From assembly GCF_000018105.1 (NCBI RefSeq), contig NC_009927.1, positions 270,001 through 302,000 on the forward strand: a stretch of 32,000 nucleotides of DNA. Reading direction: 5' to 3'. The notes below the pieces were generated by a model. That model was not told where the DNA came from, made no database searches, and worked only from the letters and a program-made list of their open reading frames with translations. The position numbers were made by a program, and so were the translations under genes. The DNA comes from Acaryochloris marina MBIC11017 (GTDB lineage Bacteria; Cyanobacteriota; Cyanobacteriia; Thermosynechococcales; Thermosynechococcaceae). This document shows positions 2,679 to 30,290 of the stretch, in pieces (position 1 is the stretch's first letter; each line of letters begins with the position of its first letter).

Positions 2679-4844
2679 ATGAGTGGAGCAAGCGATATGA
2701 AGCGTCAATGGCAACCAGATGAACTGATTGAATCCTTCATTCTGTTGCCCAATGAGTTGGCGCTTATTCCCAATTATCAGACCAACGCCACGGAGCATAA
2801 CCAGCTGGGTTTCGCTGTTCTGCTGAAATTCTTTCAACTTGAAGGTCGCTTCCCCAAGCACCTGGGCGAGATTCCTCAGATCGTTGTGGAGTTCATTGCC
2901 AAACAACTAAAGCTGACGCATCAAAGCTTGGTTGATTACAAGTGGAAAGGCCGGACTATCAAGGAGCATCGAGCTATCATCCGTTCCTTTCTCGGATGTC
3001 GTCCCACCCAGCGACCCGAAAAGAAGTCATTGATGACCTGGCTCAAAGAGAAAGTGATGCCTCTGGGGCTCCATTTGAATGCGATTCGAGAGCAAGCCTA
3101 TCAACGTCTGCGTCACCTTAAGCTTGAACCCCCTTCCCCCAAAGAATTGACCCGGCTTATCAGCTCAGCTGCCCACAACCATGAACAGGACTTTTGCCAA
3201 ACCATTGCGGCACGACTCCCAGCAGATACTCGAAAAAGGATGGATGCTTTATTAGAAACAGAATTCACCCGAGACCATGAGGAAAGTCAGTTCCGGCAGT
3301 CCGACTTCAACCGTCTCAAGTCAGATCCGGGGCGTCTAGGCCTGAAAAGTCTCTTCAATGAAATCGATAAGCTGCAAAGTATCCGACAGATTCAGCTGCC
3401 TACAGATCTATTTGCCTCCTATTCTCCTAAGCTGATTGAGCAATATCGGCGTCGAGCCTCAGCCGACCTGGCGGGACGCCTACGCCGCCACCCAAAGGCC
3501 ATTCGCTACACTCTCATTGCTTCGTTCTGTTATCAACGCGAAAAAGAGATCACTGATAATCTAGTCGATTTGCTAGTCCAGATCATCCATCGTCTTAGCA
3601 TCAGTGCCGAGCGTCGTGTAGAGCGAGAACTGATCGCTAATTTCAAACGCGTCAATAATAAAGAGGCCCTTCTATACCGAATTGCGGAAGCGGCCTTAGC
3701 CAATCCAGATCAACCCGTTAAAGAGGTGATCTTTCCGGTCGTTAGTCCCGATAAATTGACTAACGTAATTGAGGAGCGAAAACGAACCGGCATTACCTAC
3801 CGAGAAAAAGTGAATGTCAAGATTCGAGCCTCTTATTTGCATCACTATCGGCGGATGGTGCCGGCCATTTTGGAGACCCTGGATTTTCACTCCAACAACA
3901 AGCAGCATCGCCCTGTCATTGAGGCCATTGAATTGCTCAGGCAGTATCAGGGCAGTGGAAAGCGATACTTCACTGAGGATGAAAAGGTGATCACCACTGG
4001 TGTCCTAAAAAGCGGTTGGCGCGAGCTCGTCATCGAATCCAATTCCAAAGGCCAAGACCAGGTCAACCGCGTCAACTATGAAATCTGTGTCTTGCAAACG
4101 CTGCGAGACACACTGCGCTGTCGTGAAGTGTGGGTGATGGGTGCCAAACGCTACGGGAATCCTGATACGGATTTACCCCAAGATTTTGAAGCTCAACGAG
4201 AGCAGTACTATTTAGAACTCAACCAACCCTTGGATGCTGAAGCCTTCGTCACGAAACTGAAACTGGATATGACGGCAGCTCTGTCCTCCTTAAATACGAG
4301 CATCCCCAACGATCCACAGGTCAATATTCTGTCCCGAGGTAACGGCTGGATTAGTGTTACCCCCTACCCGGCTCAAGAGGAACCCAGTAATATCCACAAA
4401 CTGAAACAGGAGGTGGCGAAACGCTGGCCAATGACCAGCTTGTTGGACATCCTCAAGGAAACGGACCTGCGCGTTAATTTCACGGATCAGTTTCATACTG
4501 CAGCCTCCCGCCAACAGCTCCACGGTCCTACACTGCAAAAACGGTTATTGCTCTCTCTGTTTGGCTTAGGGACCAACATGGGCCTCAAACGAGTCTGTGC
4601 TGGGATTGCTGATGAAAGCTATCCCAATTTGCTCTACGTTAAACGTCAGTTCCTGCACCGAGAACATCTGCGCAATGCCATTGGTGAAGTTGTAAATGCC
4701 ACCCTCAAAGCTCGGTTGGGAAACCTTTGGGGAGAGGCGACAACGGCCTGTGCTTCTGACTCCAAAAAGTTTGGAGCGTGGGACCAGAATCTAATGACCG
4801 AATGGCACAGCCGTTATGGGGGCCGGGGTGTGATGATCTACTGG
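2679..4844 (+). CDS. tnpA: Tn3-family DDE transposase, exon 1 (722 codons)
   Basis: Long ORF ending ...[14 protein letters not shown], immediately followed by the GTGCG intron 5' end at 4845. The start may instead be the ATG at 2697 ([10 protein letters not shown]...). Confidence 0.85.
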
Positions 4845-5473: not shown

Positions 5474-7204
5474 ATGTCTAAAGCACGGGTCAAACCGATG
5501 ATGGAATGGAGCGCAATCCCCTGGCCAAAACTAGAGCGGAAAGTGTTTAAGTTGCAAAAGCGCATATTCAGAGCCAGACAACGTGGCGATGTCAAAGTAG
5601 TACATAGACTCCAGAAAACTCTGATGAGGTCCTGGTCAGCCAAATGCCTTTCAGTTAGACGGGTCACACAAGACAACCAGGGAAAAAAGACGGCAGGTGT
5701 GGATGGAGTTAAATCTCTGTCCCCAGAAGCTCGTCTGCCCCTAGTGGGTCAACTTAAACTCGGCTCAAAGGCCCCTCCCACCAGACGGGTGTGGATTCCT
5801 AAACCAGGAAAAGACGAACAACGTCCTTTGGGTATACCGACCCTGTATGAAAGGGCAAGAATGACACTAGTCAAACTAGCCCTGGAACCTGAATGGGAAG
5901 CGGTTTTCGAACCAAACTCCTATGGTTCAAGACCAGGCCGTTCATGTCATGACGCGATAGAACAAATTTTTGCAGCCATTAAACAGAAAGCAAAATATGT
6001 GTTGGACGCTGATATAGCCCAATGTTTTGACCGAATAAACCACGAAGCACTGCTCAAAAAGCTGAAGACCTTTCCCACTCTACGCCGACAAATAAAAACT
6101 TGGCTAAAAGCTGGGGTAATTGATGGTCATCAGTTCTTACAGACATCTGAAGGAGCACCTCAAGGGGGGACTATCTCTCCTTTGTTGGCAAATGTAGCCC
6201 TCCATGGCCTAGAGTATCGAATCAAGCAAGCCTTTCCTATCAGAAAGATTGCCGACGGGAATAAGCGAAAAAGAATTGCTACTCCTGATGTCATTCGATA
6301 CTGTGATGACTTCGTGATTCTTCACGAGGATTTATCCGTAGTTCAAAGATGTCAGAGCTTAGTTCATGAGTGGCTAAAAGACATGGGGTTGGAACTAAAA
6401 CCTAGCAAAACGCATATATCCCATACTCTCAAAAGGTATGAAGCTGAAAACCCTGGATTTGATTTTCTAGGATTCTCAGTTAGACAATTCCCGGTCGGTC
6501 AACATCAATCGGGGAGATTATGCGGGACATTGCTGGGATTTAAGACCATCATTACCCCCAGTCGAAAGAAGCAAAAAGTACATTACAATCGGCTCGTTAG
6601 TATCATCAACGCCCATAAGGCAGCGCCGCAAGCGGCATTAATCCGCCACCTCAATCCCGTGATTAGAGGATGGACGAGATATTATTCGACCATGGCTAGT
6701 AAAGAGACCTTCTCCCGTCTAGACCATTTACTGTATCAAAAGCTTCAAACATGGGCTAACCACCGCCATCCTGGCAAATCCAGGAAATGGGTGGTGAATA
6801 AATATTGGCAAACTGTCGGGGGAGATAAATGGGTCTTCGCGACTAGAGTAACTAAATCTAGAACCGAAAAATTACTCAAACATCGACAGACTCCAATTAT
6901 CCGCCATGTCAAAGTCAAGGGGGATGCAAGTCCCTACAATGGCAATCTAGTTTACTGGAGTTCAAGGACTGGGAAGCATCCAGAAGCTCCGAAGAGAGTA
7001 TCTATGCTCTTGAAGAAGCAGAAGGGGAAATGCGCTCAGTGCGGCATGTTCTTCCGAGAAGAAGATTTACTTGAAGTGGATCACATTCTCCCTACATCAA
7101 TGGGAGGATTGGACGTATACAAGAATCTTCAACTACTACACAGACATTGTCATTATGTTAAAACGGCCAAGGAGAAGTCCTCTCAGGCCAAATGGTATGT
7201 ATGA
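5474..7204 (+). CDS. group II intron reverse transcriptase/maturase with C-terminal HNH endonuclease domain
   Basis: 576 aa. RT motifs include RRVWIPKPGKDEQRPLGIPTLYERA, VLDADIAQCFDRINH, GAPQGGTISPLLANVAL and IRYCDDFVILH (YxDD). The maturase X region has RGWTRYY. The HNH part reads CAQCG...EVDHILP...NLQLLHRHCH. Confidence 0.93.
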   Translation: MSKARVKPMMEWSAIPWPKLERKVFKLQKRIFRARQRGDVKVVHRLQKTLMRSWSAKCLSVRRVTQDNQGKKTAGVDGVKSLSPEARLPLVGQLKLGSKAPPTRRVWIPKPGKDEQRPLGIPTLYERARMTLVKLALEPEWEAVFEPNSYGSRPGRSCHDAIEQIFAAIKQKAKYVLDADIAQCFDRINHEALLKKLKTFPTLRRQIKTWLKAGVIDGHQFLQTSEGAPQGGTISPLLANVALHGLEYRIKQAFPIRKIADGNKRKRIATPDVIRYCDDFVILHEDLSVVQRCQSLVHEWLKDMGLELKPSKTHISHTLKRYEAENPGFDFLGFSVRQFPVGQHQSGRLCGTLLGFKTIITPSRKKQKVHYNRLVSIINAHKAAPQAALIRHLNPVIRGWTRYYSTMASKETFSRLDHLLYQKLQTWANHRHPGKSRKWVVNKYWQTVGGDKWVFATRVTKSRTEKLLKHRQTPIIRHVKVKGDASPYNGNLVYWSSRTGKHPEAPKRVSMLLKKQKGKCAQCGMFFREEDLLEVDHILPTSMGGLDVYKNLQLLHRHCHYVKTAKEKSSQAKWYV

Positions 7205-7223
7205 CAAGCACCAAGCCACTGAG

Positions 7224-7257
7224 GAGCCGTGTAAATCGAAAGATTTACGCACGGTTT
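7224..7257 (+). ncRNA. group II intron domain V
   Basis: A 34-nt hairpin, GAGCCGTGTAAATCGAAAGATTTACGCACGGTTT, with the AGC catalytic triad at positions 2-4 and a GAAA tetraloop. Confidence 0.8.
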
Positions 7258-7298
7258 TGAAGCCAAGTCGGAGGAGTGATCCTCCGGCTTAGGTTAAC

Positions 7299-8119: not shown

Positions 8120-8182
8120 CTAAATGGATGTAATTGCTTAGTACTAAATGGTGCGATATCGCAGCTTCGGTCGTTTTAAGCC
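8120..8182. repeat. right terminal repeat of the transposon (outer part conserved, inner part degenerate)
   Basis: The outer 27 nt (8156-8182, ATATCGCAGCTTCGGTCGTTTTAAGCC) match the inverse of 931-957 with one mismatch. Of the inner part, only the 8-nt core (TACTAAAT at 8142-8149, inverse ATTTAGTA in the left IR) is retained and the GGGG is lost. Confidence 0.55.
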
Positions 8183-8229
8183 TATCTCTGACAGTGCTCT
8201 CAGGTTAGGCGGGTCGTCTATCTCGATGG

Positions 8230-8568: not shown

Positions 8569-8640
8569 GGTTTCTTCCCGGGGAGGTGGTTATGGGCCTG
8601 TGGTTGTGGAATGATCTCGGAAATAATTGTAATGTTATTA

Positions 8641-8840
8641 GACCTAAAACGACCGAAGCTGAGATGGGCCAATGACGTTGCTCAAGCATCGATTCTGTCC
8701 GTATTGTGGAACGGCCTATCAAGCCTCAAAAGCACTCCATGTGGTGAAGGAAAGCTGCCGGCAATAGTGGCAGAATAGTCTCTCATTTAAGTACAAATAT
8801 ACTAAATTGCCCCATATCGCAGCTTCGGTCGTTTTAGGCC
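8641..8840. mobile_element. miniature Tn3-derived inverted-repeat element (TIME-like) or second transposon end
   Basis: 8641-8673 resembles 931-965 in direct orientation. 8681-8840 is an inverted copy (~85-90% by eye) of 931-1090, including the IR and the 3' end of the XRE/zinc-ribbon gene (LKHRFCPYCGTAYQA...). The flanks are tATTA / gATTA. Confidence 0.6.
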
Positions 8841-9245
8841 GATTAAACGCAGCTCACCAATCTTAAACCCGTCAGTAAATTTAATCTTTTTGGGACTCAG
8901 AAGCTTCCACCCAGAGGTTTTGTATTCTACTGACCGGGAATGCTTCTTAAACCTTGGAAAGCCAACGGGTTTTATACCCCGTTTGTAATTCTCATAGAAA
9001 CGGGTGATTGAACTCCAAGCTCACTCAGCACTTGCCTGCCGAGCCATAGAGTTGAGTTGCTTAGCAAAAGGAAAATCATTGGCAAGAACTCTACACAACT
9101 TATTTAAGTCGTATTTGCCCGTACCTTTGTTATCCATCCAAAAGCGCAAGCACTTATTACGAATGAATTGAGCCGTTCTGATGGCTTCATCAATTGCACT
9201 TGCTTGATGCTTACTGGTTCTTGCTTTAAACTCTAGTACAATCAT
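8841..9245 (-). pseudogene. tnpB: IS200/IS605-family TnpB (OrfB) 5' fragment
   Basis: The N-terminus MIVLEFKARTSKHQASAIDEAIRTAQFIRNKCLRFWMDN is typical of cyanobacterial TnpB. An in-frame TGA follows codon 74. The frame then continues AWSSITRFYENYKRGIKPVGFPRFKKHSRSVEYKTSGWKL...FTDGFKIGELRLI and is cut off at the transposon end (8840). Confidence 0.75.
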
Positions 9246-16936: not shown

Positions 16937-17829
16937 TGCACATTGTCTCTGGACATCTAGATTGTGTCTCTGGTATTAGTGTTAGCCCTGATGGTCAAAC
17001 CCTCTTCTCTGCATCCTGGGACAAGACTCTGAAGATTTGGGAGCTGGCAACGGGTCGGGAGCTGAGTATACTCTCTGGACATACTGACTTCGTTTCTGAT
17101 GTGATGATCAGCCCTAATGCTCAGACTCTGGTCTCTGCATCTTGGGATATGACTTTGAAGGTCTGGGAGTTGGAGACAGGCAAGGTAAGGCACACCCTTA
17201 CTGGGCATACTGACTTCGTCAATGGCATCAGCATCAGCCCTGATAGTCAAATCCTCGTCTCCACGTCTTGGGATGGGACATTAAAGGTTTGGGAGCTAGA
17301 GACGGGCAAGGAGCTGCATACCCTCAATGGTCACACTTTTTCAGTCCATAGCGTCAGTATCAGCCCCGATGGTCAGACTCTCGTTTCAGCATCTAGTGAC
17401 AAGACCTTAAGGGTTTGGGAGCTAGCAACAGGCCGGGAGCTGGGCATCCTCAAGGGTCATTCTGACTCTGTATCTGATGTGAAGATCAGCTCTGATGGCC
17501 AGACCCTCATCTCTTCATCTAGTGACAACAGCCTTAAGATTTGGGAGTTAGCAACAGGTCGTGAGTTGGGTATTCTCAATGGACATACTGACTCTGTCAT
17601 TGGCATCAGCATCAGTCCCAATGCTCAAACCCTCGTCTCTACATCTTTGGATAAGACCCTCAAAGTCTGGGATCTGCAGACGGGTAAAGAAGTAATGAGT
17701 TTTTCTGGCGAAAGTGCATTTAGTTGTTGTGAGATCGCCCTGGATGGTCACACAGTTGTTGCTGGAGATTTTGATGGAAAACTTTACTTTTTTTCTCTAG
17801 AAGATCTAAGTTTTTCCGATGAGCACTAG
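16936..17829 (+). CDS. stand-alone WD40 beta-propeller protein (about 7 repeats)
   Basis: 297 aa made almost entirely of 42-aa units of the form GHTDxVxxxxISPDGQTLVSASxDKTLKVWELxTGxEL. There is no N-terminal domain; the protein begins inside the first repeat. Confidence 0.92.
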   Translation: MHIVSGHLDCVSGISVSPDGQTLFSASWDKTLKIWELATGRELSILSGHTDFVSDVMISPNAQTLVSASWDMTLKVWELETGKVRHTLTGHTDFVNGISISPDSQILVSTSWDGTLKVWELETGKELHTLNGHTFSVHSVSISPDGQTLVSASSDKTLRVWELATGRELGILKGHSDSVSDVKISSDGQTLISSSSDNSLKIWELATGRELGILNGHTDSVIGISISPNAQTLVSTSLDKTLKVWDLQTGKEVMSFSGESAFSCCEIALDGHTVVAGDFDGKLYFFSLEDLSFSDEH

Positions 17830-18168: not shown

Positions 18169-21100
18169 CTAGGGACAACTAACTACATTCGTAAAGGGAC
18201 TAGAAGGAGTTCCAGGAGGAACCAACGTGCCATCGAAGCTGAAGATTGCATTATTATTGTCAAGACTGACAGTTGTTAAACTTTCCACCTGGAAAGGACT
18301 CCTCGCAGAGATTAGATTAAAATCTAACCCTCCTGCCATTGCAACGTTGGGATTATCACTACGATTGCCAGAAATAGCAGCACAGATGGGATTAACATCA
18401 TAATTTCCTATCCGTAAACTATCCTGTCTTGCTTGAATCCGTACACTGTCCCGCCCTGCTTGAAGGATTTTATTATTAGAAATAGTAGCGGATTGGATGG
18501 CTCCATTGCCAACAGGCCTTACTAAGATACCGTCAGCATTTTTCCCTGACGTCGAAACCGTGTTTCCAGAGATAGTCGCTTTATTGATAGTGCTGTCTAT
18601 GTATGGCTGGACCCTAATACCAGCAGCATTGAATCTATCCGTTGAGACAGTGTTACCTGAAATAGTCGCAACGGTGATTGTACCGTTTTGGGAAGGTTGA
18701 ACGTTAATGCCATAGGCAAGTCCAGTTGTCGAGACGGTATTTCCAGAGATGATCGCAGTGGATATAACGCTATTAGTAGTAGGCCTGATATTAATACTGG
18801 CAGTTGTACTAGGAATAGTAAAGAAAGGTCTTAAAACCATATCATCAGAAATTAATCCAGCTGTTGAAATTTTATTTCCAGAGATGGTCGTGGTGGTAAT
18901 AGCACTGTTATAGCCGGGTCGGAGCAAGATCCCATCAGCAATTCCAGTAGTCGAGACAGTATTTTCAGAGATGCTTGCGGTAGTAATAGTACTTTTATTG
19001 AACGGCTCAACCAAAATGCCATAAGAAAAGATTCTATCCGTTGAGACGGTGTTTCCAGAGATAGTAGCAGTAGTGATGACACTGTTGTAGATAGGCCGAA
19101 CGGAAATACCCTGAGAGTTCAATCCTGCTGTTTCCACCGTATTTCCAGAGATGTTAGCGGATTGAATAGTACTATTATTGGAAGATTGAACCACGATGCC
19201 GTCAGATTGTACTCCATTTGTTTCAATCGTATTTCCAGAGATAGTAACGGATTGAATAGCACTATCATTCAAAGACTGAATCACAATGCCGTCAGTACTG
19301 ATCCCTGTTGTTTTAATTGTGTTTTCAGAGATGACTACACGGTCCAAATTGATGTTGGATAAGCTGAGAGAAATACCGTGAGATATACCTGGAGCAGCAG
19401 GATCAACAAATATAGGGTTCCTGGTAATCTGGTTATTAATAATTTCAGCAGAACCTGTTATGTTCTCTAATTTGATGCCTGGAGAAAAGTCTCTCCCGAT
19501 AACAATAATCTGATTGTTCTGCACCCTAACATTACGAACGTTACGGCCAAAGATGCCTCGATTGCCTGAAAAATCTACGTTGTTGGGTAAAGGGGCTATG
19601 TTTAAATTTGCGATGGTAGTATTATTTCCCAGCACCACTCCATCTCTTCCCGTGCGTTGGATGCGGCTCCCTGAGGTACCTACAATTCGAACTGAGCCTG
19701 TAGACGCACTAACATTGCTAATATCCACTCCTGCCATCGCAGGGTTATCAATATTAATCGCGTTATTGTCAAGATTGAGTGAGCCACTAATGCCATTGAT
19801 TGAGATGCCATTGGTAGTTGAATTTGTACTAGCAAGACTATTATCTATAACAGTCGCAGTAGTAATGTTGTTAGCTACTAATGCTGGGGCACCCGTTACC
19901 TGTACATCAAACCCTGAGAGCAGCGTGTTATTCCCCAAACTGACGGTACTAGTGATGCGAGGGAAGCTACTATCGCCAGAGAAGGGAAGTTGAACCTGGC
20001 CTAGCCTAAGAACACTCTCTGGCCGCAATGGGAATGAAATGGGGTTAACATCAATCTGCTGTACAGCTCCTCTTGAACGAACTTGTACCTTGTCAGGAAT
20101 CGTAAATCCTTCAATACCTGAATTTATCCCATTTGCTACATAAACGATGTCATTCCCATCCCCCCTTATCACTCCTAGTGCATCTTCCAAGCTAGGAAAT
20201 GGTGATTCAAAGGTGCCATCGCTATTGCCCAAACCTAAGTTGACATGGTGAAAAAACCATGGCTCTCCCGTGGTTGGGTTCATTGCTGCAACCGTTTGAG
20301 TCTCAGTTTCAAGAAGTTCTGTAGTGTTGGGGGTATCTACAATTATGCTGTTGTTGCGAATGACTGAATCACCCATTCGTGCCACAACATTGTTCGCTGG
20401 TGAAACTGGGCTTTGAGGCTGATTTACTGAGAGTGTAAAGGTGATATTTCCCAACACATGGGTGCCGAAAAAATCATCATGCTGAATTCCAATTCCACCA
20501 CTGATATTAGGAGTAGGTCGTACCTGTAAGCGCAACCGACCTCCAATCGTATTACCTCGAATACTGCTATGGAGAAAGTAAGGGCCTAGGTATGCTCGTA
20601 AATCACCTCCATTCTTAAAACTAAGGAGTTGTTTTCCAACTTCAAAGTCCACTCCGGCCAAGGCTTCTTCAAATTGACGCGTAATCAGACGTCGCCGCAG
20701 CAAGTCTAAAAGTAGAATATTCCCAGTAAATCGAGGGTCACCATTAAGTTGCAATACCTCAAAAATACGTTGCCTGGTTTGGCGGCGAGTACTGCCAACG
20801 GGCCAATACCCATTCAGGTGAAGGTCAACATCCTTTCCGAGACTCTCTATACCCAAGCTCAATTGCTGGAAGGTATTATTATCAGTGTTACGAATATCAA
20901 AACCTAGATGACCACCAAATATACGTTTTAGATCATCACTATACTGACGGAAGCCGAACAGAATATTTCCACCTGGGTTGCCCTGGTCATCTAGCAGGAG
21001 ACGGCCTTCGAAGAAGGTCAATGCTCGACCCGGCTTCTGCCAAACAGGAACAAAGGTTTCGAGGCGAGTGGTGGTGTTTGTACCACTGCTGGGGCTATTC

Positions 21101-21434: not shown

Positions 21435-21608
21435 ATTAACAGAGTGGCCAAATGTCATTAGATTAGAGTTTTGAGATAAATTAGGGAATTCTTTGAATTA
21501 TTAGATAACCCTAAATTAGCTAAAATAATTTGCACCTAATATAGGTCTGATGAAAGGTAAACTCCCATCTGTAAGAATTATCCAAAAATTCAAGAAACTA
21601 CAAGGCCC

Positions 21609-21733
21609 AAATCAACTGCCCTGCTGCAAGCAGACGGGGTATGGAATACGATTTGCTCCCAAACCGTAGATTTGAATTGCAATTCCATTTCTTCGCTGCA
21701 AGCAGCGGGGAATCTACCCTCACTAGATTGAAG
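21609..21733 (+). repeat. ~125-nt structured repeat, copy 1 (MITE or small RNA)
   Basis: About 95% identical by eye to the reverse complement of 26445-26567, and more distantly related to 29781-29899. It contains the hairpins CTGC...GCAG and GAATTGCAATTC. Confidence 0.7.
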
Positions 21734-22014
21734 GGCCGCTGACACCAGCTTCAATCAAACACTTTTAGGGGCTTGAAACGACGCAAATACGTTCGAGAAG
21801 AATCCAAATTATTACTAAAGGCTAAAGAAAATTGAGAAATACTAAGGCCTGAAGTCCTTTCTCTGTATAGCTTCTAGCTTTCGTTGCAGTTGGTATCAGC
21901 AACTCTTCAATTGGGCCAAAGTGATAAAAATGTTAGTGTCCTTATTTATTCGCCATGGACTGAGATAGCTGAAATGCTTTGATAATAGAGAATTCAGAGC
22001 ACTCCTTGATGAAC

Positions 22015-23864
22015 TGCGTATTCTCGTAACCTCGGGATCTAGTCCACTTTTGGTGATGCTTGAGAAAATGCACGCAAAGCTATAAGCAGCAACTACTTCA
22101 GCTCATAAGCACCAAGCGTTTATTCAAAAGGTCGAGACCAGCCCTCCCATACATTTGGCGCTTCACCATTTTCAATCGATTATTTTGTCCTTCAACCTGG
22201 CCATTACTCACTTCCAGTGTTAGGGCAGCTTTGACCGCTTCGTAGTCGTCTAGGAGCCCTTTCGCAAAACTCTGAAAAGGTTTCAGTGCACTATTTTTAG
22301 CTCTGTCCAACCACGGGTCTAGATGTTGAGGTAATCTCTTCCTGACGATGAAGAGCAAGCTTTGAGCCAGATCAATGGCTTTTGAGAGTTCAGGTTGACT
22401 ACTCAGCTGTTCCAAAATTGTCTCATCCTCTTCCGTTAGATTTTCCACCTTGCGCATCACCAACCAAGCCGCCCTCTGAACTGTCAAAGGCTTTTGGATG
22501 AGCTCTTGAGCCTCAGGAACAGGTCCTCTTCCTGGTAGCTCATTGAGGGAATCTCGTGGAGGCTGCGGGGGTAGAGACTGACGCAATTTGTGAGTGTAGC
22601 GAACGACCATCGTATAACTGCCCTTGAAGCCCTGCTGCTGAATCTCTGCTAATAATTGTTTGGAATTCTGACGACCTTTATTCCATTGTTCAAGCAGGTA
22701 GGCTTTGTAAGGGTTAAGACCACTCCATCCTCGTCGGGGATGGGTTTTATACTCTTGAAATGTATCAGCAGCTAGGTAGGTATACACAGTGCGTTTGCCA
22801 ATCCCCAGATGATGAGCAATATCTTTGATCAGGTAACCTTGCTTGCGTAAAGCATGAGTCTGCTCGTATTTTTCCAATCTTCGAGCCCGATTTTGAGCCT
22901 TACGAGAATTAGGATCAACTTGAGGTTTCACCACAGGCTGGCTCATTGCTTCTGTGTCTTGATGCTCAGCAAGTGTAGCTTTCAGCAGGGTGTACTCGAC
23001 TGTCTTGATTACTTGGGAATGAGAGCTAAACACGTTTTCTAGAATTTCTTCAAGGTTCTGGAGTAGATGAAAGCGGTCTGCAACCTGCAATGCATCAGGT
23101 GCCCCTTCACTTGCTCCTGATTTATATGCCTTGGAGCGATCACGAGAAATGACTTCGACACCAGGGTGCTCGTTCAACCAATCTGCTAACGTGTCTGCTT
23201 TGCGATCTGTTAACAAGACAATAGGTTGATGCTTTTCAAGGTCCACAAGAATGGTGCCATATTCATGGCCTCTGCGAAGTGCAAAATCATCCACCCCTAA
23301 TATTTTGGGCGTTGTCACTGAGGGAAGTGGAAGCTTGAAGAGGGCTCTCAACATAGTATTGCGACTACTTCCATAATTGATTTGATAACTCAGCCGGGCT
23401 GCAGCTGCACCACCAAGGGCCAAGCCAATCGAACTAAGGTGTTCTGCAAAGCGAACTGTCCTCCGAGCCCAAGGAACCGCGACCTGGGGTAATCGCTCAG
23501 TAAAAATGCGACGCTTACAAGTTTTATTGGAACAGAAGAACTTGCAAACTTGAAGCAGAATAGTCAGACAGAATTCCACACAGGGAAGATCTCTCAAGGT
23601 CCGCTCATAGCGACTGTGAACCCGGTGTGATGTTTGATGGCAGACTGGGCAACAAGCCAAAGCTTGAGTTGAAGAAACATGGAAGGTCATCTGATGGTTT
23701 GTGGAGTCAAGATCCCAACTGTCCAAGTGAAGGGTGTCTTGGCACGGAAGGAATTGTTGGAAGAGTTCCATAACCAGACCTGGCAAGGGTTTACTCCTCT
23801 ATCCTCTACCGCATAGTTGGCATCACCAAAAGAGGACAAGAGCCCGAAGCTATGCAAATACGCA
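22015..23864 (-). mobile_element. ISL3-family insertion sequence (~1.85 kb)
   Basis: 45-nt imperfect terminal inverted repeats (37/45 match): TGCGTATTCTCGTAACCTCGGGATCTAGTCCACTTTTGGTGATGC at 22015-22059 versus the inverse of 23820-23864. They enclose a single transposase gene. No clear 8-bp target duplication. Confidence 0.85.
22098..23786 (-). CDS. ISL3-family transposase
   Basis: 562 aa. The N-terminal zinc finger is CPVCHQTSHRVHSRYERTLRDLP. The DDE region has GVDDFALRRGHEYGTILVDLE...LLTDR...EVISRDRSKAY...QVADRFHLLQN. The C-terminus reads SNGQVEGQNNRLKMVKRQMYGRAGLDLL. Confidence 0.92.
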   Translation of the reverse strand: MPGLVMELFQQFLPCQDTLHLDSWDLDSTNHQMTFHVSSTQALACCPVCHQTSHRVHSRYERTLRDLPCVEFCLTILLQVCKFFCSNKTCKRRIFTERLPQVAVPWARRTVRFAEHLSSIGLALGGAAAARLSYQINYGSSRNTMLRALFKLPLPSVTTPKILGVDDFALRRGHEYGTILVDLEKHQPIVLLTDRKADTLADWLNEHPGVEVISRDRSKAYKSGASEGAPDALQVADRFHLLQNLEEILENVFSSHSQVIKTVEYTLLKATLAEHQDTEAMSQPVVKPQVDPNSRKAQNRARRLEKYEQTHALRKQGYLIKDIAHHLGIGKRTVYTYLAADTFQEYKTHPRRGWSGLNPYKAYLLEQWNKGRQNSKQLLAEIQQQGFKGSYTMVVRYTHKLRQSLPPQPPRDSLNELPGRGPVPEAQELIQKPLTVQRAAWLVMRKVENLTEEDETILEQLSSQPELSKAIDLAQSLLFIVRKRLPQHLDPWLDRAKNSALKPFQSFAKGLLDDYEAVKAALTLEVSNGQVEGQNNRLKMVKRQMYGRAGLDLLNKRLVLMS

Positions 23865-24719: not shown

Positions 24720-26378
24720 ATGAACATATCTGCATTATTAAAAGTCTCTAGAAATGAAAGAGATATTACTTGGCTAAGAAAAGCACTGCAAACAGCTCTA
24801 AAGCTTGAGTTTTCAACCTTACCTCCTTACCTCATTGCACTGTGGACAATAAATGATCGCAACTCGTTCGCATACCAGTCCATTCGCAATCAAATTGCAG
24901 AAGAGGAAATGCTACATATGGGACTGGTATGCAATCTAATTGTGGCAATGGGTGGGGAGCCAGATCTAACTTCTAGCGATGGTGTACCCACTTATCCAGG
25001 CCCTTTGCCAGGAATGGTGCAATCCGATTTGGAAGTATCTTTAGCACGATATTCTCCAGAAGCACTTCAAACCTTTCTGGCGATTGAATACCCCGAAAAT
25101 CCTCCTATTGAGATTGGCAATGATCCCAAGCCAGATGCCCAGGCTAATGATTGTGCATCGGATTGTGCTAAAACTATTGGCCAGTTTTATACCGAAATTC
25201 TTGAAGAATTTCAAGATTTACAGGATCGAGGCGAACTGCCAGAGTTTGATACTAACCAACAACTCAAATACTCAGTTGATTTTCAGAATGACCCTGATCG
25301 AAAAGTTTTTTTAATTGAAAGCCTTAAAGATGTCAAACGTGCGATCTCAGTTATCAAACGCCAAGGTGAAGGGACAGGCACATCCCCAGAAGATACAGGG
25401 GTAGAAGACCTCTCTCACTACTATCGATATTTAGAATTAGATCGTGAACGGCGAATTCGATTTATAAATGGTCAGTTTGTCTACGGTAACAAGCCTGCAG
25501 ACCAAATTAAAGCTCCAGCAGAAGTTTATTCGATGGCTACTATTCCTGAGAATGGCTATCAGAGAGAAAATGTTTCTAGCGATGTCTGGGAAAAAATCAC
25601 AAAATTTGATAGAACTTACTCCAAAATGCTCTTAGAAATTGAGCGAGCATGGACATACCCTGAAGAAGAAGGTGGTGGAAAACTATCTCTGGATGATGCT
25701 GTTCTAAGAACAATGTTTGAGCTGACTAATGATGCAGTCAGTATTCTACAAGAAATAATTCCTAATGCTTCTGGGGAACGTTATGGACCTTGTTTTCGCT
25801 TTGATCCAACCGTAACCCTCCCAGATGGGAATGATTCAGACAATACTGGAGGTATAAATCCCTTTCCTACTTGGGAAATTGATATCAAAAACTTTTTTAC
25901 TGCTGGTGATATTGGTTGTATGAATAATGTCGGAAATCCTCCCTTTGATTTGGCCAGCTACACAGATGTATTCCAATTTGCTGATCAGATTTTAGATCGA
26001 GTTTCTTTACCTGAAGAAGACCCCCTTCTCATGCCACAAGGGGGACCTCGTTGGCATCAAGATAAGATTGATACATTTCAAAATTGGATAACAAATGGTA
26101 AGCCAAAGGTACCCACTTGGGATGATAATATCCGAGATTTATTTGAATCTTTAGATGTTAATTGCATGAAAAATAGTGGTTCGCGATTTGATCTTAGTAA
26201 CTATGATGATGTCGTTGCGAAAGCTTCAGATATTTTGAATAGAGTTTCTAGAGCTGAGGGAGCTAGTGGAGTGATGCCTCCACAGACAGATAGACATTGG
26301 CCAGATAATTGGGTTGCGACATTTAAATATTGGTCTGAAAATGGAATGCCTAAAAGTAACGATAATCTACCAGAATAG
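24720..26378 (+). CDS. ferritin-like (four-helix-bundle) domain protein with duplicated ~82-aa C-terminal module
   Basis: 552 aa. The N-terminus ITWLRKALQTALKLEFSTLPPYLIALWTI...EEEMLHMGLVCNLIVAMGGEP matches the Ferritin-like family pattern (VioB-related). The C-terminus has two tandem homologous modules, 25863-26108 and 26109-26354. Confidence 0.7.
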   Translation: MNISALLKVSRNERDITWLRKALQTALKLEFSTLPPYLIALWTINDRNSFAYQSIRNQIAEEEMLHMGLVCNLIVAMGGEPDLTSSDGVPTYPGPLPGMVQSDLEVSLARYSPEALQTFLAIEYPENPPIEIGNDPKPDAQANDCASDCAKTIGQFYTEILEEFQDLQDRGELPEFDTNQQLKYSVDFQNDPDRKVFLIESLKDVKRAISVIKRQGEGTGTSPEDTGVEDLSHYYRYLELDRERRIRFINGQFVYGNKPADQIKAPAEVYSMATIPENGYQRENVSSDVWEKITKFDRTYSKMLLEIERAWTYPEEEGGGKLSLDDAVLRTMFELTNDAVSILQEIIPNASGERYGPCFRFDPTVTLPDGNDSDNTGGINPFPTWEIDIKNFFTAGDIGCMNNVGNPPFDLASYTDVFQFADQILDRVSLPEEDPLLMPQGGPRWHQDKIDTFQNWITNGKPKVPTWDDNIRDLFESLDVNCMKNSGSRFDLSNYDDVVAKASDILNRVSRAEGASGVMPPQTDRHWPDNWVATFKYWSENGMPKSNDNLPE

Positions 26379-26444: not shown

Positions 26445-26567
26445 CTTCAATCTAGTGAGGGTAGATTCCCCGCTGCTTGCAGTGAAGAAATGGGATTGTA
26501 ATCCAAATCTACGGTTTGGGAGCAAATCGTATTCCATACTCCGTCTGCTTGCAGCGGGCAGTTGATT
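26445..26567 (-). repeat. ~125-nt structured repeat, copy 2 (inverted relative to copy 1)
   Basis: Reverse complement aligns along its whole length with 21609-21733. It sits between the convergent stops at 26378 and 26583. Confidence 0.7.
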
Positions 26568-26582
26568 AGTCCGACAGAAATG

Positions 26583-27176
26583 TTACTGGTTTGGCACCTC
26601 AAGCGTCAAAGATTTGAATGTTAGTGCGAAGTCTGTTGGGAAAGCAGTTACATAATCCCAATGGATAGGAACAAAGGTAACTTGCAGTTGCTTTCTCCCG
26701 TCAAGATGAGCTGGTGTAATGATGCCCGCATGCCATAACCTAGAGAGTGTCGGCGCGATATTAAATTGTTGGGACTGTACGTCCTCAAGACCTAAAACAA
26801 AGCTGCTTATGTAATGCTGATCATCAATGGTAGTGTTAGCATCAGCATCTGGATTCTCAATAAAGATTCGAACACCCTTCAAATCCTTTGCCGCCTGCGG
26901 ATAAACGTCTCGAATAACTAAACGGGCAATCTTGAGAGAGCCACCCTCAAGATGAAGTTTAAGGGTTTGCCGAACCTCATCTCCGATTTCTAACTGAAAG
27001 GTGCTAGAAGAATTGTTGATGATGTTCATAGTCATGGGATCACTCTTACCACTGTTGCCGCTTAGATCGGCTCCTTCGGCTCGAACATCTGAGTTTGAGG
27101 CAGAGCAAGCTACTGAGATGCAACTCATCAAGGCGATGGCAATGAGTCTAAAGATCGCTCTCCTTGAGACCCTCAT
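26583..27176 (-). CDS. lipoprotein paralogous to the tyrosinase C-terminal domain (candidate caddie/shield protein)
   Basis: I trimmed the 233-aa ORF to the ATG at 27176 because the longer form overlaps the tyrosinase 3' end. The signal plus lipobox is MRVSRRAIFRLIAIALMSCISVAC. ARLVIRDVYPQAAKDLKGVRIFIENPDADANTTIDDQHYISSF aligns with tyrosinase VVRLRIEGVKTPKQQNTGVFVFLGPDITAETPISAPGYVGNF. Confidence 0.6.
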   Translation of the reverse strand: MRVSRRAIFRLIAIALMSCISVACSASNSDVRAEGADLSGNSGKSDPMTMNIINNSSSTFQLEIGDEVRQTLKLHLEGGSLKIARLVIRDVYPQAAKDLKGVRIFIENPDADANTTIDDQHYISSFVLGLEDVQSQQFNIAPTLSRLWHAGIITPAHLDGRKQLQVTFVPIHWDYVTAFPTDFALTFKSLTLEVPNQ

Positions 27177-29780: not shown

Positions 29781-29899
29781 AATCAACTACCCCATGCAAG
29801 TAGACAGGTATGAAAGATGTTTCCCTCCCAATCTGTAAGCTTGGATAGGAATCTTTTCTCTTCATTGTAAGAAATGGGGAGTGTACCCTGACTAAATGC
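29781..29899 (+). repeat. ~125-nt structured repeat, diverged copy 3
   Basis: Colinear with copy 1 (AATCAACT.CCC...GCAAG.AGAC.GGTATG...CTCCCAA...GGGGA...TACCCT.ACTA.AT) but much more diverged. Confidence 0.5.
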
Positions 29900-30290
29900 A
29901 AATACCAAAAATCTTAATATTTTCTTGTGCATAAATAATCTCTGTATGCTGTTTTTTTAAAGAACTAAAAGTAAAGCATATTGAATAATAATACTTGGGC
30001 AATAGTGCTGATTTTAAATATGTTTATTCGAATTATTCAATAACTATTTTATGTAGTTGTATAACTTTATTGCTGTGAGATTTTTTAGATCATTTTTCAG
30101 GATTTACCTGTTAAGAAAATATGATTTTGAGTAGCTCCTTCCTACTCTTAGGCCTGATGATTTCGACGCAACTTACCGATTTTGTAAAGCAGAAGATGAG
30201 GAGAGTACTTTTTGAAACCTCACGGTTATGAAGTCACAAAAATAGATACTACTCATTATTAAAATACAAAAGCATTTTAAGGTTAGAAGA

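Follow-up and report, generated by a model that had tools for sequence, protein, structure and literature searches.

The repeat and its setting

The window (by which we mean the whole 32,000-nt stretch of Acaryochloris marina MBIC11017 DNA analysed here) holds three copies of a short repeat, all of them intergenic. Copies 1 and 2 are inverted with respect to each other and 95% complementary over 114 nt, and copy 3 is a diverged relative, about 70% identical to the others; a nine-copy nhmmer profile matches exactly these three places in the window. In all this the initial annotation was correct, as it was in placing copy 2 between two convergent genes (24720-26378 on the plus strand and 26583-27035 on the minus strand). 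The extents that it gave (21609-21733, 26445-26567 and 29781-29899) have been revised to those listed here, the final six or seven bases of the element as it was then drawn (ATTGAA) being flanking target that lies outside the element.

21604-21917, no strand: host TIR-MITE (21604-21609 plus 21727-21917), 197 nt without copy 1; it bounds copy 1 and is not part of the inserted element
21610-21726, minus strand: copy 1, 117 nt, very probably an IS200-derived palindrome-associated transposable element (PATE); the tnpA-sense orientation is the minus strand of the window
21619-21639, minus strand: right-end (RE) subterminal hairpin of copy 1; the plus strand reads CCCTGCTG-CAAG-CAG(A)CGGGG; 9 nt from the element end
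21653-21682, minus strand: internal stem-loop of copy 1, TTGC..CCAAA / TTTGr..GCAA, occupying the tnpA position (RNAalifold helices 2 and 3)
21694-21707, minus strand: left-end (LE) subterminal hairpin of copy 1, CGCTG-CAAG-CAGCG
21727-21732, minus strand: target hexamer TTCAAT, directly 5' of the left end, in the host MITE flank
26446-26451: target TTCAAT, adjoining the left end of copy 2
26452-26567, plus strand: copy 2, 116 nt, with its canonical orientation on the plus strand
29781-29895, minus strand: copy 3, 115 nt, old and decayed, with a degraded RE hairpin
29896-29901 (as the complement): target TTGCAT of copy 3

The window matches the reverse complement of plasmid pREC1 of A. marina MBIC10699 (NZ_AP026076.1), in which copy 1 is found with 100% identity. 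Copies 1 and 2 have unrelated flanks, so the repeat has spread by transposition and not by segmental duplication, and the 94-95% identity among copies 1 and 2 and a copy on the Moss Beach plasmid pMB10, all at unrelated sites, points to rather recent movement. Copy 3 and its orthologue on plasmid pREC4 are old and decayed.

Several other repeats were seen in and around the window. The stretch of about 90 nt at 21922-22014 adjoins the left TIR of ISAcma23, an element of the ISL3 family (TIRs at 22015-22059 and 23820-23864), and is found again on other Acaryochloris plasmids beside transposase genes, those of the IS256 family among them; the region from 21.6 to 23.9 kb is a pile-up of nested mobile elements. 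The only Rfam match in the window is to a group II intron, at 7222-7298 (domain V/VI, 48.2 bits), directly after a 576-aa ORF (5474-7204) that presumably encodes the reverse transcriptase of the intron. A dispersed repeat family containing ATCGCAGCTTCGGTCGTTTTAGGCC brackets this region: a 181-nt inverted repeat (87%) is found at 931-1111 and 8660-8840, about 7.5 kb apart, and related shorter pieces at 8142-8191, 8635-8665 and 8816-8846 share ATCGCAGCTTCGGTCGTTTTAGGCC. Tandem repeats of 126 nt in a WD40-repeat gene and of 87-90 nt in an inverse-autotransporter gene (16951-17687 and 18471-19332) are ordinary protein-domain repeats. On pREC4, at about 3120-3283 of locus L003 and just downstream of a copy of the element, there is a repeat of about 160 nt that also occurs on pREC3 and pREC1 (72-78% identity).

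Anatomy of the element

Each copy has two near-palindromes of the CGCTG-CAAG-CAGCG type, in direct orientation on the same strand. The two internal direct repeats that had been reported at a spacing of about 80 nt correspond to these: repeats of the GCTGCAAGCAG type are indeed present, with starts 72 nt apart. In full-length copies (described below) tnpA has one hairpin ahead of its start codon and the other after its stop codon, so the hairpin first seen as 'left' is the RE hairpin and that seen as 'right' is the LE hairpin; the canonical, tnpA-sense orientation is opposite to the one initially used. The element thus consists of two ends, the left about 45 nt long and the right about 35 nt, each with its hairpin, and of an internal stem-loop of about 30 nt that takes the place of the transposase gene. 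The LE hairpin is some 16-20 nt from the left junction, and the RE hairpin 9 nt from the end. The hairpin spacing of IS608 is similarly asymmetric, at about 19 nt and 10 nt.

The true termini (CTAGTGAG... and ...GTTGATT) show no inverted match, nor is there any family-wide pairing between the ends in an RNAalifold analysis of 15 copies. The ends had been described as weakly inverted, and a match of 7 in 9 can be found if they are drawn as they were at first; part of this is explained by the inclusion of ATTGAA from the flanking target, and there is no true TIR. The sole terminator-like consensus match is formed by the RE hairpin followed by TTGATTT on the canonical strand, and would fit a terminator for tnpA in the parent element. 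The element itself has no coding capacity. An ORF given as 34 codons long has 33 (21641-21742) and overruns the end of the element; as was claimed, it is not conserved, having a TAG at codon 3 in copies from Kovacikia, Phormidesmis and Phormidium, and a tblastn search of the window with TnpA was empty.

Insertion boundaries and target

Copy 1 is nested in the left TIR of the 197-nt MITE. The sequence from 21727 onwards was recognised as a separate abundant repeat when the copy-1 region was compared by BLAST (42 places in 17 records, a count that includes matches to the PATE and to an IS-end fragment as well), the MITE segment itself being matched in six other Acaryochloris plasmid records. The inverted ends of this MITE match through about 28 nt (GGCCCAATTGAAGGGyyGCTGACACCAG). 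In intact copies (L127-L129) the left end reads GGCCCAATTGAAGGG, i.e. GGCCCA followed immediately by ATTGAAGGG, whereas in the window GGCCCA and ATTGAAGGG are separated by 117 nt, with not one target base duplicated. Since the intact copies are uninterrupted there, copy 1 extends exactly from 21610 to 21726 and was inserted without target duplication. In canonical orientation ...CCCTTCAAT meets CTAGTGAGGG... at the left junction and ...GGGCAGTTGATT meets TGGGCC at the right, the insertion being 3' of TTCAAT.

Copy 3 can be compared with an orthologous filled site on pREC4 and with an empty site on the Moss Beach plasmid pMB08. When it is excised at the homologous boundary, the remaining sequence aligns with the empty site without a gap; the score for excision stays level along one diagonal, the target being similar to the right-end terminus. 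The proposal that the flanks be inspected for target-site duplications has therefore been answered in the negative, both at copy 1 (from the host MITE) and at copy 3 (from the empty site). These are the only two Acaryochloris sites comparable with empty sites: BLAST searches with flanking sequence brought up no homologous empty locus for copy 1, for copy 2 or for the L003 and L006 copies. Further afield, a gene at locus L088 is interrupted by a full-length copy; when this is taken out at the same boundary, the reading frame is restored (the frame alone would permit offsets of 0, 3 or 6).

Of 15 cyanobacterial copies, 13 have the hexamer TTSAAT next to their left end. Among distinct full-length copies selected by their protein and having a recognisable left junction the hexamer is TTNAAT in 50 of 57, the AAT part being partly imposed by the search pattern.

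Full-length relatives

A scan of one genome per species with a 20-mer from the RE hairpin (the first hairpin with its 3' neighbours, GCTGMAAGCAGNCGGRGTAT) gave at least 114 loci, about 17 chance matches being expected. They are spread over Bacteroidota, Chloroflexota, Cyanobacteria, Proteobacteria, SAR324, Patescibacteria and others. Most are short elements in which 30-90 variable bases separate the first hairpin from the second (with a CAAG loop and a variable stem); at about a dozen, what comes after the first hairpin is coding sequence, on the opposite strand. At L088, the two hairpins enclose a unit of 547 bp with a single ORF of 151 aa, the product of which matches Pfam Y1_Tnp (E = 1.8e-39) and NCBIfam transpos_IS200 (137 bits, with a cutoff of 55).

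Full-length relatives of this kind, about 550 bp long with a Y1/HUH tnpA of 147-151 aa, were found in Kovacikia, Chroococcidiopsis, Pseudanabaena, Bacteroidota and many other phyla. Cyanobacterial examples are carried on plasmids of Kovacikia (L122), Pseudanabaena PCC 7367 (L123, annotated as tnpA) and Chroococcidiopsis (L124). Their left end (TTyAAT, then CTnnnnnGGGTnnATTCCCCGC leading into the hairpin) and their right end (ATACCCCGTCTGCTTGCAGCGGGGTAGTTsATT) are both near matches to the element in the window. The same LE and RE were present at 80 metagenome loci picked by protein similarity alone (69-91% identity). The TnpA family is a large one, with at least 7,719 proteins at E ≤ 1e-40 (8,000 candidates having been scored) and more than 600 metagenome stretches; one homologue, 86% identical, is labelled 'ISMac7 family' at NCBI.

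Two further observations may be recorded here. In metagenome contig Ga0182027_10564800 (L179), about 85 nt upstream of tnpA, a right end abuts the next left end (...GGGGTTGTTTATT joined directly to CTCTTCCGGGT...), which is either a head-to-tail arrangement or an insertion 3' of the terminus of another copy. A metagenome-assembled genome labelled Rhizobium sp. Q54 contains both a full-length IS of the cyanobacterial type and the 125-nt PATE subtype (L010 and L034), which suggests mis-binned cyanobacterial contigs or recent transfer.

Conservation of pairing

For all analyses of covariation, sequences were chosen by similarity of sequence or protein, and never by pairing. Among 43 elements drawn from many phyla, the LE hairpin pairs in 90.2% of cells and has 38 double-sided changes, compared with 8.9 in shuffled alignments (a level reached by none of 500 shuffles); its covariation score is 0.47, and slid controls gave 0.13 at most. 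For the RE hairpin we compared 23 distinct sequences selected by their protein: 95.7% of cells pair, and the 13 double-sided changes compare with 3.4 in shuffles (again 0 of 500). For the complete short element we used 15 cyanobacterial copies, from Acaryochloris, Kovacikia, Phormidesmis, Phormidium and Pseudanabaenaceae, in which RNAalifold found five helices: one for each end hairpin, one that forms a GGG/CCC clamp, and two that make up the internal stem-loop. The whole structure shows 23 double-sided changes, against 7.2 in shuffles (0 of 500). In the internal stem-loop (TTGC..CCAAA / TTTGG..GCAA) about 92% of cells pair and five pairs have double-sided changes, by which pairing has been kept among copies from Acaryochloridales, Leptolyngbyales and Pseudanabaenales. 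In copy 1 itself the basal C-G pair of this stem-loop is a C.A mismatch, a G-to-A change having broken a conserved pair. A terminal AATCTA/TAGATT helix pairs in 89% of cells and shows no covariation.

The general idea of the initial annotation, that pairing rather than coding is conserved, was thus right, although the two helices on which it was based turn out to be coincidental. The substitutions that convert GAATT/AATTC to GGATT/AATCC are real, and yet over the 15 copies they amount to one double-sided cell (in copy 1), which was matched by 314 of 500 shuffles; this helix overlaps the 3' arm of the internal helix that truly covaries. As to the change of CTGC/GCAG to CTAC/GTAG, the critical pair is unpaired in 11 of the 15 copies, and CTAC is the majority state.

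Nature of the element and alternative explanations

What kind of element has these properties? Members of the IS200/IS605 superfamily have subterminal hairpins on one strand, lack TIRs, cause no target duplication and have their left end inserted 3' of a specific short sequence (PMC5027513, PMC4810608), and members that encode no protein are known as PATEs (PMC4810608, PMC7290912, PMC10055086). It is very probable that the copies described here are non-autonomous, gene-less derivatives of the IS200 group, and hence PATEs of that superfamily. The PATE is a kind already known, and is ordinary selfish DNA, not a new structured RNA. The initial description of an uncharacterised MITE or small RNA was apt insofar as the element is short, mobile, non-coding and MITE-like; its kind is not a new one, and the RNA alternative found no support. 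The proposed test for a 'plain MITE' does not apply to an element that has neither TIRs nor target duplications.

How might such an element move? The mechanism and the PATE concept have both been described in published work (PMC5027513, PMC4810608, PMC7290912, PMC10055086), from which transposition here would be of the single-strand 'peel and paste' type, using the top strand (PMC5027513). By homology with IS608 and ISDra2, a Y1/HUH TnpA supplied in trans would bind both hairpins on the single-stranded top strand; by analogy, it would excise that strand as a circle, which would then be re-inserted 3' of the short target TTSAAT with no target duplication. Which strand is active, and how it would be cleaved, are likewise taken by analogy with IS608 and ISDra2. 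The end hairpins are best read as single-strand DNA signals for TnpA and not as an RNA fold; because TnpA would read the shape of the hairpin, stems could drift while pairing was kept, which would account for the compensatory changes.

Covariation of the internal stem-loop is not explained by recognition by TnpA. The stem-loop may make the single-strand intermediate more compact, or may simply have hitch-hiked. We consider it possible, albeit unlikely, that it is a selected module and not filler (joining the ends in the circle, or transcribed), and, as a related idea, that the PATE persists, and passes on plasmids from one cyanobacterial lineage to another, in hosts whose matching transposase has been lost, by using the transposase of incoming plasmids.

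The alternative of a structured small RNA or cis-regulatory RNA, dispersed in the genome and under selection as an RNA, would also accommodate the covariation of the internal stem-loop across cyanobacterial orders and the strong fold of the plus strand (-42.6 kcal/mol, z = -4.7). Both strands fold significantly better than shuffled sequences, however, the canonical strand doing so equally significantly as DNA (z = -4.0), and the most strongly conserved parts of the element are the exact ends of a transposase-bearing IS. The suggested comparison with Rfam gave no family match to the element, whether at the gathering score or with E ≤ 10 (the best overlapping score was 9.2 bits, against a gathering score of 125), and of three promoter-like consensus matches in the copy-1 region none is within 80 nt of the element start. 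At five annotated plasmid loci the element is just downstream of a gene and co-directional with it, often less than 20 nt from the stop codon. A tally of 53 short elements from all phyla revealed no such bias (21 co-directional, 34 opposite); the apparent link between the orientation of the element and that of neighbouring genes disappeared, and this lead was dropped. An RNA of either sort therefore seems to us very improbable.

There is hardly more to be said for a repeat of the REP/REPIN type served by a domesticated, single-copy RAYT (TnpA-REP). RAYTs too are Y1 enzymes that act on hairpin repeats, and some of the TnpA homologues carry the JGI label 'REP element-mobilizing transposase RayT'; the TnpA of the full-length element nevertheless scores only 26-36 bits with NCBIfam REP_Tyr_transpos (cutoff 80), compared with the 137 bits for transpos_IS200. 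Moreover, tnpA lies inside the hairpin-bounded unit, there are several identical copies of that unit per genome (L088, L108, L120), one of which splits a gene, and the hairpins are direct, not inverted. We regard this explanation as improbable in the extreme.

A classical MITE, with TIRs and target-site duplications and moved by a DDE transposase, would be expected to be small, intergenic and present in several copies, as the element is, and the ends as first drawn have the weak 7-of-9 inverted match. That apparent inverted repeat is partly flanking target, the hairpins are direct, the autonomous relatives encode a Y1/HUH and not a DDE enzyme, and the duplication-free boundary in the host MITE refutes the idea, which is almost certainly wrong. 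Searching the literature for a named cyanobacterial MITE matching the element gave nothing specific. The chance that the copies are attC-like or other sites for nearby tyrosine integrases is likewise negligible: integrase genes or fragments do adjoin the L002 copy and lie near copy 3, and a size of about 120 nt is like that of chromosomal attC sites, but the copies are not arrayed and are of mixed orientation, the pMB08 locus has the integrase gene without the element, and hundreds of element loci have no integrase nearby.

Source of transposase and present mobility

If the copies are PATEs of the IS200 group, where is their transposase? No close tnpA (E ≤ 1e-30) was found on the Acaryochloris plasmids in PLSDB. 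A six-frame TnpPred annotation of the MBIC11017 chromosome (PMC3506888, supplementary file 2) includes a 47-aa N-terminal fragment of TnpA at 689,482-689,622, which reads SEYIHKSHNVSVLLYHLVFPKYRRALFDESVDEVLRNICMDIENRF, is 81% identical to the TnpA of Kovacikia (by manual count) and adjoins an IS1 ORF. The C-terminal motifs TVGKHG and DHVHFL are not among the entries listed for MBIC11017 in that annotation (PMC3506888), and the other Y1 genes in it are different, and have stop codons. Among the entries listed, this fragment is apparently the only trace of the parent element in MBIC11017, and it appears from this chromosome, that of a strain other than MBIC10699, that a cognate parent once lived in this lineage and is now a relic. 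With tnpA apparently surviving only as a fragment, the PATE copies are probably orphans, left over from past activity or from plasmid transfer, and may no longer be mobile in this host.

These results leave the current understanding of the mechanism unchanged. They add a lineage of single-strand transposons to the IS-rich and plasmid-rich genome of Acaryochloris, and the nesting of a PATE in a TIR-MITE beside an ISL3 element puts at least the first two of these events in order. Such repeats, and their parents of about 550 bp, which are often missed by genome pipelines, can be labelled as elements of the IS200 group and should not be taken for candidate RNA genes. The size of the family, together with the near-invariant hairpin loops and the TTNAAT target, would make it well suited to studies of end recognition by Y1 enzymes.

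Comparison with known systems

The copies in the window have the same ends, hairpins and TTNAAT target as tnpA-only IS elements of the IS200 group, from which they differ in having no tnpA. Like IS608 of Helicobacter pylori and ISDra2 of Deinococcus radiodurans, the family has hairpins on one strand at both ends and is inserted 3' of a specific sequence without duplication (PMC5027513), but the target appears to be a hexamer, TTNAAT, rather than TTAC or TTGAT, and there is no tnpB. The short hairpin repeats known as REPs, BIMEs and REPINs are likewise associated with a Y1/HUH enzyme, the RAYT; their hairpins are inverted, whereas those of the window family are direct, and the latter has an IS-type transposase in a unit that is itself multicopy and mobile. 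Classical MITEs, such as the 197-nt host of copy 1, are alike in size, copy behaviour and intergenic habitat, but the PATE has no TIRs and a different transposition chemistry. PATEs already described similarly consist only of an LE and an RE with subterminal hairpins, lack any ORF, TIR or target duplication, and would be mobilised only in trans, by a Y1 TnpA. Those in the literature often encode ωRNAs or carry remnants of the tnpB of IS605 (PMC4810608, PMC7290912, PMC10055086), whereas the element in the window derives from a tnpA-only element of the IS200 group, has a covarying internal stem-loop of its own and is common to several cyanobacterial orders.
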